Shown: in pieces, positions 9,050-14,195 of the stretch
Layout of the letters: the number at the start of each line of letters is the position of its first letter
Position numbering within the stretch: the first letter of the stretch is position 1
Assembly: GCA_009695015.1 (NCBI GenBank)
Contig: SIBT01000002.1
Coordinates: forward strand, 1-32,423
DNA: 32,423 nucleotides
Origin: Candidatus Nomurabacteria bacterium
GTDB taxonomy: Bacteria > Patescibacteriota > Minisyncoccia > Phycocordibacterales > UBA9973
Reading direction: 5' to 3'
Notes under the pieces: model-generated
Databases searched by the model: none
Told to the model about the DNA's origin: nothing
Seen by the model: only the letters and a program-made list of their open reading frames with translations
Program-made: the position numbers and the translations under genes

Positions 9050-9135
9050 GTGCAGTATTCTTGAATTAGTCCGAACGCATTTCGGGAAGGAAATCCCTCC
9101 GCGAAAATTCGGAAAGGCGGCGGAGCCGCACCGCT
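9050..9135 (+). repeat. 86-bp inverted repeat 'e', left copy
   Basis: gtgcagtattcttgaattagtccgaacgcatttcgggaaggaaatccctccgcgaaaattcggaaaggcggcggagccgcaccgct. It is the exact reverse complement of 9911-9996 (86/86, checked base by base). Confidence 0.95.
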
Positions 9136-9138
9136 GAC

Positions 9139-9162
9139 AATTTCAAGTTTTTCTTTGGCGGC
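9139..9162 (-). repeat. 24-bp fragment identical to recombinase codons (inverted copy of 10230-10253)
   Basis: The reverse complement of 9139-9162 is gccgccaaagaaaaacttgaaatt, identical to 10230-10253 (AAKEKLEI). It sits between the cargo ORF stop and repeat e. Confidence 0.85.
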
Positions 9163-9180
9163 AAATTCTTTAATGATTTC

Positions 9181-9831
9181 TTAATGAAGAAATTTAAAGG
9201 TCGAAAGAACACTATTGAGTAAGGCTAAAACACTACTCTCATTTACTCTCGAAATCTTAGTGTTTGTTGAGTAAGCTAAATCTGTTGTGTTAATTCTCAA
9301 AATTATTTCTAAACAACCCTGCTCATGAAGAGTTCGATACATCCAATCTTTACTTTCATGTCCGGATGATTTGAATATGCCACCCGCCGTCTCGGAGAAA
9401 GTAATATTATCGATTTGTTTTTTAGGAATAACAGTCCCAACACATTTTGCTTCGGTATCAAAACGCTTAATCACGCTTATTGCAACCGCGGCTCCCTCAA
9501 GATTTGTATCTGTGTATGATTTAGATGGAAAATATAAACATGCGACTATATCACGAGGATCACATGGATAAAAAATATTATGTGGCAAAGCTGAAATTTT
9601 TTGTCGATCCTGTTCTCCATCGTAAAATTCCCCACTTGGTGGGTAGCTTATCTCAAACCCGTATTTCTCATTTGTATATTTTTTCCAGTCAGAAACTTGA
9701 GCTAAAGCTGGAGGTTCTTGTCCTTGGTTAATGGGTGTTTGCCTCTTGGACATTATAAAATATCCACCAGCGATTATGATAGCAACGACGACAACAATCA
9801 AAATAATATTTACAAATCCTTTTTTACTCAT
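9181..9831 (-). CDS. Hypothetical membrane-anchored or secreted protein (N-terminal TM helix, extracytoplasmic domain)
   Basis: 216 aa with an ATG start. A single N-terminal hydrophobic helix (FVNIILIVVVVAIIIAGGYFI) is followed by a Cys-containing soluble domain. I recognise no catalytic motif. Confidence 0.7.
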   Translation of the reverse strand: MSKKGFVNIILIVVVVAIIIAGGYFIMSKRQTPINQGQEPPALAQVSDWKKYTNEKYGFEISYPPSGEFYDGEQDRQKISALPHNIFYPCDPRDIVACLYFPSKSYTDTNLEGAAVAISVIKRFDTEAKCVGTVIPKKQIDNITFSETAGGIFKSSGHESKDWMYRTLHEQGCLEIILRINTTDLAYSTNTKISRVNESSVLALLNSVLSTFKFLH

Positions 9832-9833
9832 AT

Positions 9834-9860
9834 GATTAAAAAATTTTCTTCCCCCAAAAT
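9834..9860 (-). repeat. 27-bp 'A box', inverted copy, 2 nt upstream of the cargo ORF ATG
   Basis: The minus strand reads attttgggggaagaaaattttttaatc, identical to the plus strand at 10093-10119. Confidence 0.9.
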
Positions 9861-9861
9861 T

Positions 9862-9910
9862 AAAATATGGTTCGAGCCGATGTTTTTCTCCGGGTTCTTT
9901 TGCGGTTTTG
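9862..9910 (-). repeat. Two abutting inverted fragments of the recombinase gene (B: 27 bp, C: 21 bp)
   Basis: 9862-9888 is the reverse complement of 11471-11497 (gaaaaacatcggctcgaaccatatttt). 9890-9910 is the reverse complement of 10274-10294 (caaaaccgcaaaagaacccgg). One nucleotide (9889) joins them. Confidence 0.9.
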
Positions 9911-9996
9911 AGCGGTGCGGCTCCGCCGCCTTTCCGAATTTTCGCGGAGGGATTTCCTTCCCGAAATGCGTTCGGACTAATTCAAGAATACTGCAC
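9911..9996 (-). repeat. 86-bp inverted repeat 'e', right copy
   Basis: Exact reverse complement of 9050-9135. It overlaps repeat D by the 4 nt GCAC (9993-9996). Confidence 0.95.
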
Positions 9997-10092
9997 CACG
10001 TAGGAAAAGTCAAAGAGTTTTGGTTCGCCTCGCTTCGCTCGGCGACCAATTGGTATTCAATTTTTGGGGTAAAAACGAATTGGCGGTTTCGC
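9993..10092 (-). repeat. 100-bp inverted repeat 'D', left copy
   Basis: Reverse complement of 11498-11597 with 99/100 identity. The single mismatch is at 10034 versus 11556. Confidence 0.95.
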
Positions 10093-10119
10093 ATTTTGGG
10101 GGAAGAAAATTTTTTAATC
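10093..10119 (+). repeat. 27-bp 'A box', 17 nt upstream of the recombinase ATG
   Basis: attttgggggaagaaaattttttaatc, identical to the minus strand of 9834-9860. Confidence 0.9.
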
Positions 10120-10136
10120 CTTAATCAAACAACAAT

Positions 10137-11645
10137 ATGAAATACATACTTTATGCGAGAAAATCTACCGAAGAAGATGACCGACAAGTGCTTTCGATTG
10201 AAGCGCAACTCGTAGAGTTGCAAGAGTATGCCGCCAAAGAAAAACTTGAAATTATCGCTTCCTTCCAGGAAGCCAAAACCGCAAAAGAACCCGGGCGAAT
10301 AAAATTCGCAGAAATGTTGTCATTGATTGAGAGAGGAAAGGCAGATGGAATTATTTCGTGGCACCCCGACCGCCTCGCGCGCAATTCGGTGGACGGCGGA
10401 AAGATTATTTATTTTGTAGATCGCGGCTTGATTCGCTCTCTAAAATTTCCCACTTTCTGGTTTGAACCGACACCGCAAGGGCTATTTATGCTGAACATTG
10501 CTTTTGGCCAATCAAAATATTTTGTAGATAATTTGCGAGAGAATGTGAAGCGAGGTTTGCGGCAGAAAATCAGGAATGGCGTATGGCCCGGCTGGGCCCC
10601 GGTTGGCTACCTAAATAATCCTAAAACTCGCGGGATTGATGTTGATAGCAAGAAAGCACTCAAAGTGAGGAAGTTGTTTGAAATGTACGCCACCGGAGCA
10701 TATACGCTTCATTCTCTCGCAAATTGGTGCAGGGAAAATGGTTTAGTCGGCAATCTCGGCAAGCCGCTTGTCATCGCCAATATTCAGAAAAATCTACAAA
10801 ATGTTTTCTACCTTGGCTTGATGAAATGGAAGAGGGAAATTTTTGAGGGAAAACACGAGCCGTTAATTTCAAAGAAACTTTTTGATTCTTGCCAAGAAGT
10901 GATGGCGAAACGCGGGAAGGTACAAGAAGTGAGAAAACACCACTTTACTTTTCTTGGCTTACTCAAATGTGCTTCGTGCGGTTGCTCCATTACTGGAGAG
11001 CGACAGAAAGGACATAACTACTATCGTTGCACCAAAAAGAAAGGTCCTTGCCAAGAAAAGCATTATCTCCGCGAGGAAGCATTAACCGAGCAAATCAAAA
11101 ACTTCTTGCAAAAAGTTTCTTTATCGAGCCAAGACACCGAGAAAGTTCTAGCGGCGTTAGATACAGAACAGGATAAAGCGAGAGAGGATGCACAAAGCGA
11201 AGTTGGGATCTTAAAAGACCAATTATCACAATTTGAGATAAAACTTCAAAGGTTGTTAGACATTTATTTAGCCGATGCTTTATCCACAGAGGAATACACC
11301 GCCAAAAAACAGAGTTTGCTGTCTCAAAAGGTCGCTCTCGTGGAGAAAATCACCGACTTTGAGCAAAAAGGATTATCTTGGCTCGAACCGGCTCGTGAGT
11401 TCGTAAAATCCTTAAATCAAGCCATAAAATTGATTGATGAGAATAATCTTTCCGAATTGCCAACATTTCTGAAAAACATCGGCTCGAACCATATTTTGCG
11501 AAACCGCCAATTCGTTTTTACCCCAAAAATTGAATACCAATTGGTCGCCGAGCGAGGCGAGGCGAACCAAAACTCTTTGACTTTTCCTACGTGGTGCCCA
11601 GGGAGAGAATCGAACTCTCATGATGTTGCCATCAATAGATTTTGA
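10137..11645 (+). CDS. Large serine recombinase (resolvase catalytic domain + recombinase domain + zinc ribbon + coiled coil)
   Basis: 502 aa ORF. The N-terminus MKYILYARKSTEEDDRQVLSIEAQ contains the catalytic Ser motif. DRLARN, WAPVGY and the zinc ribbon CASCGCSITGERQKGHNYYRCTKKKGPC are present, followed by a long coiled-coil-like segment. The frame only stops (TGA 11643-11645) after reading antisense through 54 nt of tRNA-Leu, so the native C-terminus is uncertain. Confidence 0.9.
   Translation: MKYILYARKSTEEDDRQVLSIEAQLVELQEYAAKEKLEIIASFQEAKTAKEPGRIKFAEMLSLIERGKADGIISWHPDRLARNSVDGGKIIYFVDRGLIRSLKFPTFWFEPTPQGLFMLNIAFGQSKYFVDNLRENVKRGLRQKIRNGVWPGWAPVGYLNNPKTRGIDVDSKKALKVRKLFEMYATGAYTLHSLANWCRENGLVGNLGKPLVIANIQKNLQNVFYLGLMKWKREIFEGKHEPLISKKLFDSCQEVMAKRGKVQEVRKHHFTFLGLLKCASCGCSITGERQKGHNYYRCTKKKGPCQEKHYLREEALTEQIKNFLQKVSLSSQDTEKVLAALDTEQDKAREDAQSEVGILKDQLSQFEIKLQRLLDIYLADALSTEEYTAKKQSLLSQKVALVEKITDFEQKGLSWLEPAREFVKSLNQAIKLIDENNLSELPTFLKNIGSNHILRNRQFVFTPKIEYQLVAERGEANQNSLTFPTWCPGRESNSHDVAINRF
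11498..11597 (+). repeat. 100-bp inverted repeat 'D', right copy (recombinase 3' coding end plus the last 6 nt of tRNA-Leu)
   Basis: gcgaaaccgccaattcg...cttttcctacgtggtgc, matching the reverse complement of 9993-10092 at 99/100. Confidence 0.95.
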
Positions 11646-11678
11646 GTCTATCGCGTCTACCAATTCCGCCACCTGGGC
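11592..11678 (-). tRNA. tRNA-Leu (anticodon CAA), class II with a long variable arm, CCA encoded
   Basis: Manual fold of GCCCAGGTGGCGGAATTGGTAGACGCGATAGACTCAAAATCTATTGATGGCAACATCATGAGAGTTCGATTCTCTCCCTGGGCACCA. The acceptor is GCCCAGG/CCTGGGC. The anticodon arm is ATAGA-CTCAAAA-TCTAT. The variable arm is GATG-GCAA-CATC. The T arm is GAGAG-TTCGATT-CTCTC. Confidence 0.92.
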
Positions 11679-11750
11679 AATTTATATATGATACTTAAAT
11701 TTAATTCAAAAATCAACAAAAAATAGTCTCTTAAGTTATCCACATTGCAT

Positions 11751-11768
11751 TATCTCATATATGAGATA
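11751..11768. promoter_or_regulatory. 18-bp perfect palindrome spanning the first ATG of the HTH-MurA gene (candidate operator)
   Basis: tatctcatatatgagata is its own reverse complement. It overlaps ATG 11761 and lies 14 nt upstream of the alternative ATG at 11782. An AT-rich background lowers its significance. Confidence 0.35.
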
Positions 11769-13329
11769 TACTGTTTTTTATATGACTAAAGTAAGAAAAG
11801 AAACCGAATTAGAAATAGAGACTGAACAGCAAAAGATCGGTTATTTTATTAAAGAATTACGTGAACGACGTGGGATGACACAAGAACAGTTTGCTAAAGC
11901 CTTGAATACTTCTCAGAGTTCAATTCCACGTATGGAGAAAGGCGAGCAGAATTTTACCACAGAATTACTCCTAAAAATAAGTAACGTTTTAGATCATCAG
12001 ATAGTTTCTATAAATGATTCGATCGATTTCGAAGTAAATGGAGGTAAAAAATTAAGTGGAACGATAAAAACCAATTTTTCAAAAAATGGTTCCGTGGGGC
12101 TTCTTTGCGCTTCTCTTGTAAATAGTGGCACAACTACTCTCCATGGCATCGCCCGGATTGAAGAAGTGTTTCGTGTGATTGAAATATTAGAAAGTATTGG
12201 AGTTATTGTAAAATGGCTCAACCAGAATACTTTAACAATTACACCACCCAATAAATTTACTATAGAAAATATTAATATAGATTCAGCGATCAAGACACGT
12301 TCGATCGTGATGCTCATAGGGCCCCTCATTCACAAATTATCTTCTTTTTCTATCCCCCACGCATATGGATGCAATCTCGGTAAAAGAACTATCGCTGCTC
12401 ATATATATGCGTTAGAAGAACTTGGCGTAAAGATAAAAACAACAAACAAAAGTTATGATGTTAGTGTAAAAAAACTTAAACCAGCAAAAAATATAGTGAT
12501 GTATGAAACCGGGGAAACAGCCTGTGAAAATGTTTTGTTTGCTTCGGCTTTAATTTCCGGAGCTACCACGATAAGTTTTATGAGTAATAACTATTTCGTC
12601 CAAGAGATTTGTTTTTTCTTAGAAACATTGGGGGTAAAAATCGATGGCGTTGGTACGTCTACTTTGACCGTTCATGGGGTATCCGAAATAAATAAAAATG
12701 TCGAATATTCAAATAGTGAAGACCCGATCGAATCTATGATGTTTATTTCAGCTGGAATTATTACTGATTCACATATCATTATCACTCGCGTGCCCATAGA
12801 TTTTTTATCTTTAGAACTTGAAAAATTAAAAAGAATGAATTTGAAATACAAAATCTTAAAAAGATACTACTCACACAATGGTCGAACAAAACTCGCTGAT
12901 ATAGAAATTTTTCAAAGCAAATTGAAAGCATTACAAGATAAAATACATGCAAACATTTACCCCGGAATAAATATAGACAATCTTCCCTTCTTTGTGCCGA
13001 TAGCAATACGCGCCAAAGGACAAACGATGATTCACGATTGGTATTATGAAAATCGCGCAATCTATCTGACTGAATTAAACCGCCTCGGTGCGGAAATCAC
13101 TCTCGCAGACCCTCATCGTCTCTATATTGTAGGTGGAACAGCTCTTAAGGGCGCTCAAGTGGTTTGCCCGCCTGCCCTGCGTCCTTCGATGGTCATTTTG
13201 ATCTCTATGCTCGGAGCTAGTGGTAAATCAATCTTACGAAATGTCTATATGATAAATCGTGGTTACGAGGAAATAGCCGAACGACTAAATTCTATCGGCG
13301 CAGATATTAAAATAATCAAGGGAAACTAA
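11761..13329 (+). CDS. murA: UDP-N-acetylglucosamine 1-carboxyvinyltransferase (MurA) with an N-terminal XRE-type helix-turn-helix extension
   Basis: 522 aa. Residues ~25-80 (IGYFIKELRERRGMTQEQFAKALNTSQSSIPRMEKGEQNFTTELLLKISNVL) form a typical HTH_3/XRE motif. The rest aligns to MurA: GGKKLSGTIKTNFSKNGS (Lys22 region), YGCNLGKRTIAAHI (Cys115/Arg120 loop), YPGINIDNLPFF (Asp305 region) and INRGYEEIAERLNSIGADI (Arg397 region). The start may be ATG 11761 or 11782. Confidence 0.85.
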   Translation: MRYTVFYMTKVRKETELEIETEQQKIGYFIKELRERRGMTQEQFAKALNTSQSSIPRMEKGEQNFTTELLLKISNVLDHQIVSINDSIDFEVNGGKKLSGTIKTNFSKNGSVGLLCASLVNSGTTTLHGIARIEEVFRVIEILESIGVIVKWLNQNTLTITPPNKFTIENINIDSAIKTRSIVMLIGPLIHKLSSFSIPHAYGCNLGKRTIAAHIYALEELGVKIKTTNKSYDVSVKKLKPAKNIVMYETGETACENVLFASALISGATTISFMSNNYFVQEICFFLETLGVKIDGVGTSTLTVHGVSEINKNVEYSNSEDPIESMMFISAGIITDSHIIITRVPIDFLSLELEKLKRMNLKYKILKRYYSHNGRTKLADIEIFQSKLKALQDKIHANIYPGINIDNLPFFVPIAIRAKGQTMIHDWYYENRAIYLTELNRLGAEITLADPHRLYIVGGTALKGAQVVCPPALRPSMVILISMLGASGKSILRNVYMINRGYEEIAERLNSIGADIKIIKGN

Positions 13330-13331
13330 AA

Positions 13332-14195
13332 ATGCAGAAACCGAAAGTTATCGTCATCCTAGGTCAAACTGCTACTGGAAAAAGTAATTTGGCAGTAAAA
13401 ATTGCTCGTAAAATAGGAGGCGAAATAATTTCAGCTGATTCGCGCCAGGTATATAAAGGGCTTGATATTGGCACGGGTAAAATTACCAAAAAAGAGATGA
13501 AGGGGGTTTCTCACTATTTACTAGATGTAGTAAATCCAAAAAAGAAATTTAGCGTTGCAGAGTACAAGAAGCTAGCTGAGAAAAAAATAGAAGAAATAAT
13601 TGCTCATGAAAAACCCCCGATTATTTGCGGGGGAACGGGATTTTATATTGATGCAGTAACGAAAAACATTGTTTTCCCAGAAGTTCTACCGAATCCAAAA
13701 CTACGCAGACAACTTATTGCAAAATCAGAGATCGCATTGTTTGAAGTATTAAAAAAATTAGATCCTGCGCGTGCTACAAATATTGATTCAAAAAATAAAG
13801 TCAGATTAATAAGAGCGATTGAAATAACCAAAACTTTAGGCAAAGTCCCTCCAGTTACAGAGGGTAATCATTTATATAAATTTATAAAAATTGGTTTGTA
13901 TTTGCCGTCAGATAAACTGAAAAAAAATGTAGAAAAAAGAGTGAAAAAAATGTTTAAAGATGGTTTACTGAGTGAAATTAAAAAATTAAAAAAACCTGTC
14001 CATCTTGGCGGGGCGGGAGTATCGAATAAAAGACTTGCTGAACTTGGTTTTGAATATTTCAATCCAACTTATGAAAAAGTAGTTCGAGGAACCTTGCAAT
14101 ACGCTAAACGTCAAATGACGTGGTTCAAACGTGACAAAAAAATAAAATGGTTCGATGCTTCAAAGAAAATTGATCTAACAAAAATTATTAGTTAA
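13332..14195 (+). CDS. miaA: tRNA dimethylallyltransferase
   Basis: 287 aa. It has the P-loop ILGQTATGKSNLAVKIA, then ISADSRQVYKGLDIGTGK and LQYAKRQMTWFK. Confidence 0.9.
   Translation: MQKPKVIVILGQTATGKSNLAVKIARKIGGEIISADSRQVYKGLDIGTGKITKKEMKGVSHYLLDVVNPKKKFSVAEYKKLAEKKIEEIIAHEKPPIICGGTGFYIDAVTKNIVFPEVLPNPKLRRQLIAKSEIALFEVLKKLDPARATNIDSKNKVRLIRAIEITKTLGKVPPVTEGNHLYKFIKIGLYLPSDKLKKNVEKRVKKMFKDGLLSEIKKLKKPVHLGGAGVSNKRLAELGFEYFNPTYEKVVRGTLQYAKRQMTWFKRDKKIKWFDASKKIDLTKIIS

Follow-up and report, generated by a model that had tools for sequence, protein, structure and literature searches.

A Patescibacterial MurA fused to an N-terminal helix-turn-helix domain: a candidate bifunctional enzyme and autorepressor with a private operator

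MurA catalyses the committed step of peptidoglycan synthesis and is the target of fosfomycin, and the control known for it works at the level of the protein: feedback by UDP-N-acetylmuramic acid (UDP-MurNAc) and, in Firmicutes, proteolysis by ClpCP. Here we describe a murA gene on a 32,423-nucleotide stretch from a Candidatus Nomurabacteria bacterium (contig SIBT01000002.1 of assembly GCA_009695015.1; hereafter the window, contig C20 of our set), the product of which carries a DNA-binding domain of the XRE-type helix-turn-helix (HTH) class at its amino end (HTH-MurA) and the promoter of which is occupied by an 18-bp perfect palindrome. The host assembly is a metagenome-assembled genome of 439 kb in 29 contigs, estimated to be 75% complete.

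The controller (C) proteins of restriction-modification systems and the XRE repressors of phages and of integrative and conjugative elements (ICEs) are dimeric, autoregulatory and act on palindromic operators at their own promoters. In BzdR, an HTH protein with an enzyme-derived part, the C-terminal domain is shikimate-kinase-like, non-catalytic and senses benzoyl-CoA, and the protein represses by way of promoter palindromes. To our knowledge, almost nothing is known of gene regulation in Patescibacteria, also called the Candidate Phyla Radiation (CPR). A search of the full-text literature, the coverage of which leaves out most subscription journals, returned no published description of an HTH-MurA fusion, in agreement with an earlier note on the window, made from its letters, which knew of no characterised example. 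The sequences themselves are already public and annotated as plain MurA; what is new is the functional reading and not the gene.

An HTH domain joined to a complete MurA

A single open reading frame (ORF) of 522 codons (11761..13329, plus strand) runs without a stop from an XRE-type HTH into a full-length MurA. The earlier note had proposed such an N-terminal fusion, and the Pfam profiles bear it out. HTH_3 (PF01381) matches residues 30-78 of 522 with an E-value of 2.4e-13 and 50.4 bits against a cut-off of 23, so that the amino-terminal region does give a significant HTH match; HTH_31 likewise scores above its own cut-off on this part. EPSP_synthase (PF00275) follows at residues 92-509 and is covered completely (profile positions 1-417 of 417, E 3.7e-40). 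Two start codons, ATG 11761 and ATG 11782, had been considered, and the homologues decide for the second: orthologues begin at the equivalent methionine, and stops close their frames a few codons upstream. ATG 11761 sits inside the palindrome and the promoter spacer and is ruled out as a start. With translation beginning at 11782 the amino-terminal extension is about 80 amino acids long and not the 95 or so first suggested. The parts of the gene are as follows.

11782..13329, plus strand: HTH-MurA coding sequence from the probable true start, 515 amino acids plus stop.
11848..11994, plus strand: XRE/Cro-C1-type HTH domain with recognition helix TSQSSIPRMEKGEQN, from Pfam HTH_3 and an AlphaFold2 model.
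11995..12027, plus strand: linker of about 10 residues, HQIVSINDSID, with a predicted local distance difference test score (pLDDT) of about 60 at model residues 71-80.
12028..13317, plus strand: complete MurA body (UDP-N-acetylglucosamine (UDP-GlcNAc) enolpyruvyl transferase) with the catalytic residues and a 14-residue insertion, from profiles, matches to solved structures and the alignment to E. coli MurA.

AlphaFold2, given an alignment of 84 rows, predicts a four-helix HTH, a linker of low confidence and a standard two-lobe MurA, with a mean pLDDT of 90.2 and a predicted template modelling score (pTM) of 0.82. The HTH helices are placed at residues 15-29, 34-41, 47-52 and 60-70 (515-residue numbering) with pLDDT of 79-93. 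Among solved structures the nearest relatives of this part are restriction-modification C proteins and repressors of phages and ICEs (E 1e-4 to 1e-3), and PRK08154 is a weak match that extends over the HTH only. Fused orthologues show hardly any variation in the domain, and the SIDF end of the linker is retained in unfused relatives.

The body reaches 300 bits against the NCBIfam model of MurA (NF006873, cut-off 297), compared with just 59 bits against the AroA model TIGR01356, and matches more than 30 solved MurA chains end to end. It is 28% identical to MurA of E. coli K-12 (NC_000913.3) over 416 columns. In this pairwise alignment K22, N23, R91, C115, R120, D305, R331, R371 and R397 are all kept, which confirms the previous statement that the regions of Lys22, Cys115, Arg120, Asp305 and Arg397 are intact, and the equivalents of these nine catalytic and substrate residues are invariant in 84 orthologues. 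The position of E. coli D369, beside an alignment gap, is occupied by proline and is the sole difference among the aligned residues checked. Two further traits characterise the subfamily: a 14-residue insertion, SKLKALQDKIHANI (window 12934-12975), lies just ahead of the YPG..D305 motif in fused and unfused members alike, and an invariant CPPALRP motif (window 13171) stands where E. coli has TD369-LR.

A search for a second, unfused murA, which the earlier note had recommended, found no other EPSP-synthase-family gene in the 75%-complete host assembly, and fused genomes of the same genus that are 94-99% complete contain a single match each. The host genome also encodes murB (contig C21), which indicates that the pathway exists. 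The sole EPSP-family gene, the single matches in near-complete relatives and the presence of murB together point to the fused protein as a working MurA, and its predicted competence as an enolpyruvyl transferase is supported indirectly by the intact residues, the sole-copy status and murB.

Residues 1-140 of the protein matched 1097 protein clusters (formed at 90% identity), and all 120 of those listed combine PF00275 with PF01381. The listed clusters derive from NCBI, JGI, ENA and Logan assemblies, most of them annotated as plain MurA. Within the genus 13 of 24 other species have the uninterrupted fusion, and it recurs in several families of the order besides this one. Among 300 genomes sampled evenly from the class the fusion is confined to a few families, which share a distinct MurA subfamily (at least 52% identity); all other genomes of the sample have an ordinary unfused MurA (at most 40%). 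At no orthologous locus is the HTH encoded by a gene of its own upstream of murA, and the unfused relatives simply lack it. In a tree of the MurA domain the deepest clade is entirely fused and the unfused forms are nested among fused ones; at least five changes of state are forced by well-supported branches and 15 are found on the best tree. The fusion is thus real, ancient and conserved.

An operator-like palindrome that accompanies the fusion

The palindrome was found to be perfect over 18 bp and to lie exactly where it had been reported. The ATG that the earlier note saw it overlap is not the start of the gene, and the palindrome lies 14-31 nt upstream of the true start at 11782.

11745..11750, plus strand: -35-like hexamer TTGCAT of the murA promoter, a putative assignment from conservation just 5' of the palindrome.
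11751..11768, no strand: 18-bp perfect palindrome TATCTCATATATGAGATA, putative operator, read directly and conserved in fused loci.
11767..11772, plus strand: probable -10 hexamer TATACT, from conservation in 56 loci.

The spacer between the -35-like and -10 elements is taken up by the palindrome, which also covers the first two bases of the -10 element. When 56 fused loci were aligned on the centre of the palindrome, a common order emerged. TTGCA(A)T, conserved to a moderate degree, comes first; the palindrome then occupies a spacer of 16-17 nt; TATA(A/C)T, which is conserved, follows at +7..+12 from the centre, and the ATG stands 7-10 nt further on. So short a distance between -10 element and start codon suggests that the murA mRNA is leaderless or nearly leaderless.

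Palindromy by itself is unremarkable, as the 439-kb genome contains 14 perfect palindromes of 18 bp; what sets this one apart is that it is conserved among relatives to a degree far above what chance would give. Orthologous loci were searched with the pattern TAT[AC]TC[AG][TC]AT[AG][TC]GA[GT]ATA, with no more than 2 mismatches permitted. All 68 of the 68 fused loci that could be read have the consensus TATATCAYATRTGATATA, compared with 0 of 25 unfused ones, so that the site, the conservation of which the earlier note had left to be checked, is indeed kept at orthologous loci. The fused count is made up of 56 of 60 non-redundant loci with the motif within 400 nt, in most cases 26 to 31 nt before the ATG, three further loci with the motif at about -600, and 9 of 11 additional loci; 3 fused loci with too little readable upstream DNA were kept out of it. 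Over the 56 loci 12 of the 18 motif positions are invariant and the flanks are unalignable, and the murA proteins of these loci are as little as 58-63% identical. The motif stays with the promoter where an insert resembling a miniature inverted-repeat transposable element (MITE) or an extra gene separates the promoter from murA, and an identical -35-like/-10 context surrounds it in those three loci where it lies at about -600.

In the host genome TATCTCATATATGAGATA is single-copy at up to 3 mismatches. A relaxed search for its core gave no convincing further site in this genome, and no operator site was found upstream of its murB (contig C21); for the 75%-complete host assembly a wider regulon is ruled out by the same observations. 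In 10 other fused genomes, searched with the pattern at no more than one mismatch, there is one site at murA each; eight of these genomes have no other and two have one extra site, in G012 between recJ and an RNase H gene, and in G342 with 1 mismatch. The extra site of G012 is not at any cell-wall gene. Among five unfused genomes of the same genus (99-100% complete) four are without a site and one has a single site with 1 mismatch. An operator-like site is therefore kept base for base where the HTH is present, gone where the HTH is absent and essentially unique in each genome. A reading of the palindrome as an RNA hairpin or terminator was considered and ruled out by the invariant centre, the frequent uncompensated changes in one half-site and the AT-only stem.

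The half-sites vary together with the recognition helix. All 14 loci with the helix SQSS[IV]PR, which include the present one, have at least one GAGATA half-site, compared with 11 of the 45 loci with the helix SQSA[VI]AR, none of which has both half-sites changed. At the host locus the variant occupies both half-sites (TATCTC...GAGATA) and dyad symmetry is kept. This covariation and the symmetry fit direct readout of the site by a dimer.

A homodimer model of two copies of residues 16-515 gave an interaction score (ipSAE, interaction prediction score from aligned errors) of 0.55, against 0.00 for the best control. Among proteins of solved structure this mark was attained by 20 of 30 that form pairs of one chain and by 1 of 23 that are single chains. 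Individual runs had at least 81% of contacts in common, with a partner pLDDT of at least 86, and placed a symmetric interface in the MurA body that involves both lobes, with residues 343-351 and the subfamily insertion residues 385-395 (515-residue numbering). The run used a purpose-built alignment and MurA oligomers are present in the PDB, so the pass may reflect model memory. With this reservation the model supports homodimerisation of HTH-MurA, and a predicted interface spanning both lobes makes a conformational link to DNA binding conceivable.

Several relatives show rearrangements next to the motif. Three of them (L028:621-1178, L034:601-1173 and L050:607-1182) have a gene of about 190 amino acids between the operator-bearing promoter and HTH-murA; its product is an AAA_33 P-loop kinase at two loci, one of the kinases showing faint Zeta_toxin and SKI similarity, and a His_Phos_1 phosphatase at the third, and the gene would be co-regulated with murA. 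In L036, L038, L044 and L057 inserts of 100-160 bp lie between the operator and promoter and the HTH-murA start, and similar ones are found in L033, L049 and L019. Several of these inserts are bounded by short inverted repeats, e.g. CCCGTTAGAGAT...ATCTCTAACGGG, and are MITE-like. The extra site of G012 (L102:1495-1512, equal to G012:C4:20795-20812) is the only additional match with zero mismatches in the genomes checked; it is located just upstream of a promoter-like TTGACA-N17-TAAAAT without an obvious ORF, and could belong to a small RNA.

Proposed autorepression and the alternatives

We propose that HTH-MurA is a bifunctional protein, a MurA enzyme and an autorepressor with a single private operator, and we consider this to have a probability of roughly three in four. 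The N-terminal XRE-type HTH would bind the palindrome in its own promoter as a dimer held together by the MurA bodies. Lying across the spacer between the -35-like and -10 elements, the bound protein would block RNA polymerase, and the amount of MurA would thereby limit transcription of its own gene and probably also of miaA, the next gene downstream, as negative autoregulation of a single-operator regulon. DNA binding, and repression rather than activation, are what the conserved arrangement of domain, site and promoter suggests. In the clade the regulon would consist of the protein's own promoter with the genes co-transcribed from it, here miaA.

A number of observations weigh against this proposal. 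The body scores 291.3 bits with TIGR01072, the murA equivalog model, under its cut-off of 392.7, a score by which it is a member of a divergent MurA subfamily. With an assembly that is 75% complete, another murA or another operator may have escaped assembly. The hexamer TTGCAT agrees with the E. coli consensus TTGACA, which may not be the rule in Patescibacteria, at 3 of 6 positions, and for this reason the murA promoter is absent from the list of a generic sigma-70 scan. The counts that relate recognition helix to half-site ignore shared ancestry, and the predicted dimer interface sits in the MurA body rather than in the HTH. The tree provides, on its well-supported branches, 5 independent contrasts between fused and unfused lineages, in about 3.8 of which the motif is concordant and in none opposite; with so few the test has little power (sign-test p 0.125), uniform as the pattern is. 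Finally, HTH and operator are adjacent and one deletion could remove both; joint loss is for that reason the weaker evidence, and the joint retention of HTH and operator is the stronger.

An elaboration of the proposal is that the autorepressor is gated by ligands. Closure of the enzyme on UDP-GlcNAc and phosphoenolpyruvate, or its locking by UDP-MurNAc, might alter dimerisation or the geometry of the HTH and so tune repression. We regard this as a tentative idea that is rather less likely to be right than wrong. If it were true, the flux of peptidoglycan precursors would set the transcription of the first committed cell-wall gene without a separate regulator, in a minimal sensing circuit suited to ultra-small genomes with very few transcription factors.

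Among explanations that do without autoregulation, the palindrome may be an AT-rich part of the promoter or the site of another factor, with the HTH binding elsewhere, tethering the enzyme or contacting proteins. The motif is TATA-like and overlaps the -10 element, the AT-rich genome has its 14 perfect palindromes of the same length, and the adjacency of HTH and motif permits their joint loss by one deletion. Nevertheless, an ordinary promoter would not be expected to preserve 12 of the 18 positions of its spacer, and these with dyad symmetry, where the proteins are no more than 58-63% identical, and the exact motif occurs almost nowhere else in genomes that must contain hundreds of promoters. 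Moreover, the half-site variant follows the recognition-helix variant, and no other conserved candidate target was found. We consider this explanation unlikely.

Somewhat less likely again is that the protein is a sensor and regulator only, in which a MurA-like body without catalytic activity senses a ligand on behalf of the HTH, as in BzdR. The score below the equivalog cut-off, the replacement of D369 by proline and the 14-residue insertion could be taken in this sense, and XRE-HTH fusions with enzyme-derived sensor domains do exist (the PRK08154 type, here a weak match). It would, however, be difficult to reconcile with the retention of nine residues, Cys115 and Asp305 among them, the equivalents of which are invariant in 84 orthologues. 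The gene is also the sole EPSP-family gene here and in near-complete relatives, in a genome where murB is present, and unfused members of the subfamily, with 72-83% identity, must be the MurA of their genomes.

It is also improbable, and to a similar degree, that HTH-MurA, once bound to the palindrome, activates transcription or does no more than adjust it, e.g. by remodelling of the spacer in the manner of MerR. The site is in the spacer, where activators of the MerR family also bind, and the weak -35-like element (3/6) is typical of activator-dependent promoters. The spacer of 16-17 bp is, however, near optimal, as compared with 19-20 bp in MerR-type promoters, and unfused alleles without the module sit directly behind a tRNA gene, so murA needs no dedicated activator. 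XRE/Cro-C1 domains bound across a core promoter repress.

That the fusion is an artefact, two genes joined by misassembly or a frameshift as the earlier note had cautioned, can be given practically no weight even for a fragmented metagenome-assembled genome of 29 contigs and 75% completeness, because the in-frame architecture recurs in more than 1000 independent protein clusters that come from a wide range of projects, with contigs of about 700 kb among them, and there is no orthologous locus with a separate HTH gene.

If the proposed autorepression is correct, a MurA with a built-in repressor and a private operator would represent a new and very compact form of control of cell-wall synthesis. 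A defined 18-bp site together with a defined protein offers an entry to transcription control in Patescibacteria/CPR, a major uncultured lineage, and close relatives provide natural controls in the form of alleles that lack HTH, operator and promoter together.

Neighbouring genes and comparison with known systems

Two further genes adjoin HTH-murA in the window.

11592..11678, minus strand: tRNA-Leu(CAA), identified with ARAGORN, divergent from murA.
13332..14195, plus strand: miaA (tRNA isopentenyltransferase), Pfam IPPT, E 1.1e-59.

The miaA gene begins 2 nt past the murA stop and is probably co-transcribed with murA. Its placement under the murA promoter and operator would pair tRNA modification with cell-wall synthesis, an odd combination.

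On the other side, a co-directional tRNA-Leu(CAA) gene lies upstream of the murA ATG in 21 of the 25 unfused loci and ends 0-17 nt before it in 16 of them; the unfused alleles include L013, L015-L018, L020, L055, L063-L066, L069-L071 and L076. A gap of 0-17 nt is too short for a promoter and suggests that the tRNA gene and murA are transcribed together. At fused loci the same tRNA gene, where present, is at least 52 nt away and in either orientation. The unfused alleles appear to have given up their private promoter with its operator and to depend instead on read-through from the tRNA gene.

Beyond the tRNA gene the window contains a large serine recombinase (Resolvase, Recombinase and Zn_ribbon_recom domains; 10137-11645, plus strand), flanked by 101-nt inverted repeats (9993-10093 and 11497-11597) with 99% complementarity, of which the right-hand one shares 6 nt with the 3' end of tRNA-Leu(CAA). 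The recombinase is missing from all orthologous murA loci and is therefore a genome-specific insertion or an invertible element beside the tRNA gene; a link between recombinase and fusion is ruled out by the same absence. Positions 9050-10119 are a mosaic in which pieces of the recombinase gene and of the sequence around it recur as short inverted copies, with a 91-nt pair at 9050-9140 and 9906-9996 and copies of 21-35 nt that match 10093-10119, 10222-10256, 10274-10294 and 11471-11497. It looks like the remains of several rounds of recombination or a fault of the assembly.

Compared with canonical MurA (E. coli and Enterobacter cloacae; PDB 1UAE and 1EJC), HTH-MurA has the same two-lobe EPSP-synthase fold and keeps the nine residues; it differs in its low identity of 28%, the 14-residue insertion, the proline at D369 and the N-terminal HTH. 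For the HTH itself, C.Esp1396I, C.AhdI and C.BclI among the C proteins, together with small XRE repressors of phages and ICEs, are the nearest solved relatives. Unlike HTH-MurA, the C proteins are stand-alone polypeptides of about 80 amino acids without an enzyme, dimerise via the HTH and in some cases have both activating and repressing sites.

In layout the protein resembles BzdR of Azoarcus sp. CIB, which is of the PRK08154 type and likewise has an N-terminal HTH_3, a short linker and an enzyme-derived C-terminal domain. Unlike BzdR, the body of HTH-MurA keeps all the catalytic residues of MurA that were tested and is the only MurA of its genome.

The union of a DNA-binding domain and a catalytic body in one polypeptide, together with a palindrome that overlaps the promoter (and is a putative operator here), is shared with the bifunctional enzyme-repressors known as trigger enzymes, to which BirA of E. 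coli (the biotin-protein ligase that represses the bio operon), PutA and NadR belong. The folds differ: the DNA-binding domain is a winged HTH in BirA and a ribbon-helix-helix in PutA, whereas HTH-MurA combines an XRE/Cro-C1 HTH with an enzyme of the EPSP-synthase fold. BirA dimerises through its enzyme body, and a dimer mediated by the body is also what the model predicts for HTH-MurA. The ligand that switches BirA is biotinyl-AMP; for HTH-MurA a comparable switch is speculative. Unlike BirA, which acts on a separate biosynthetic operon, HTH-MurA has its own gene as candidate target.

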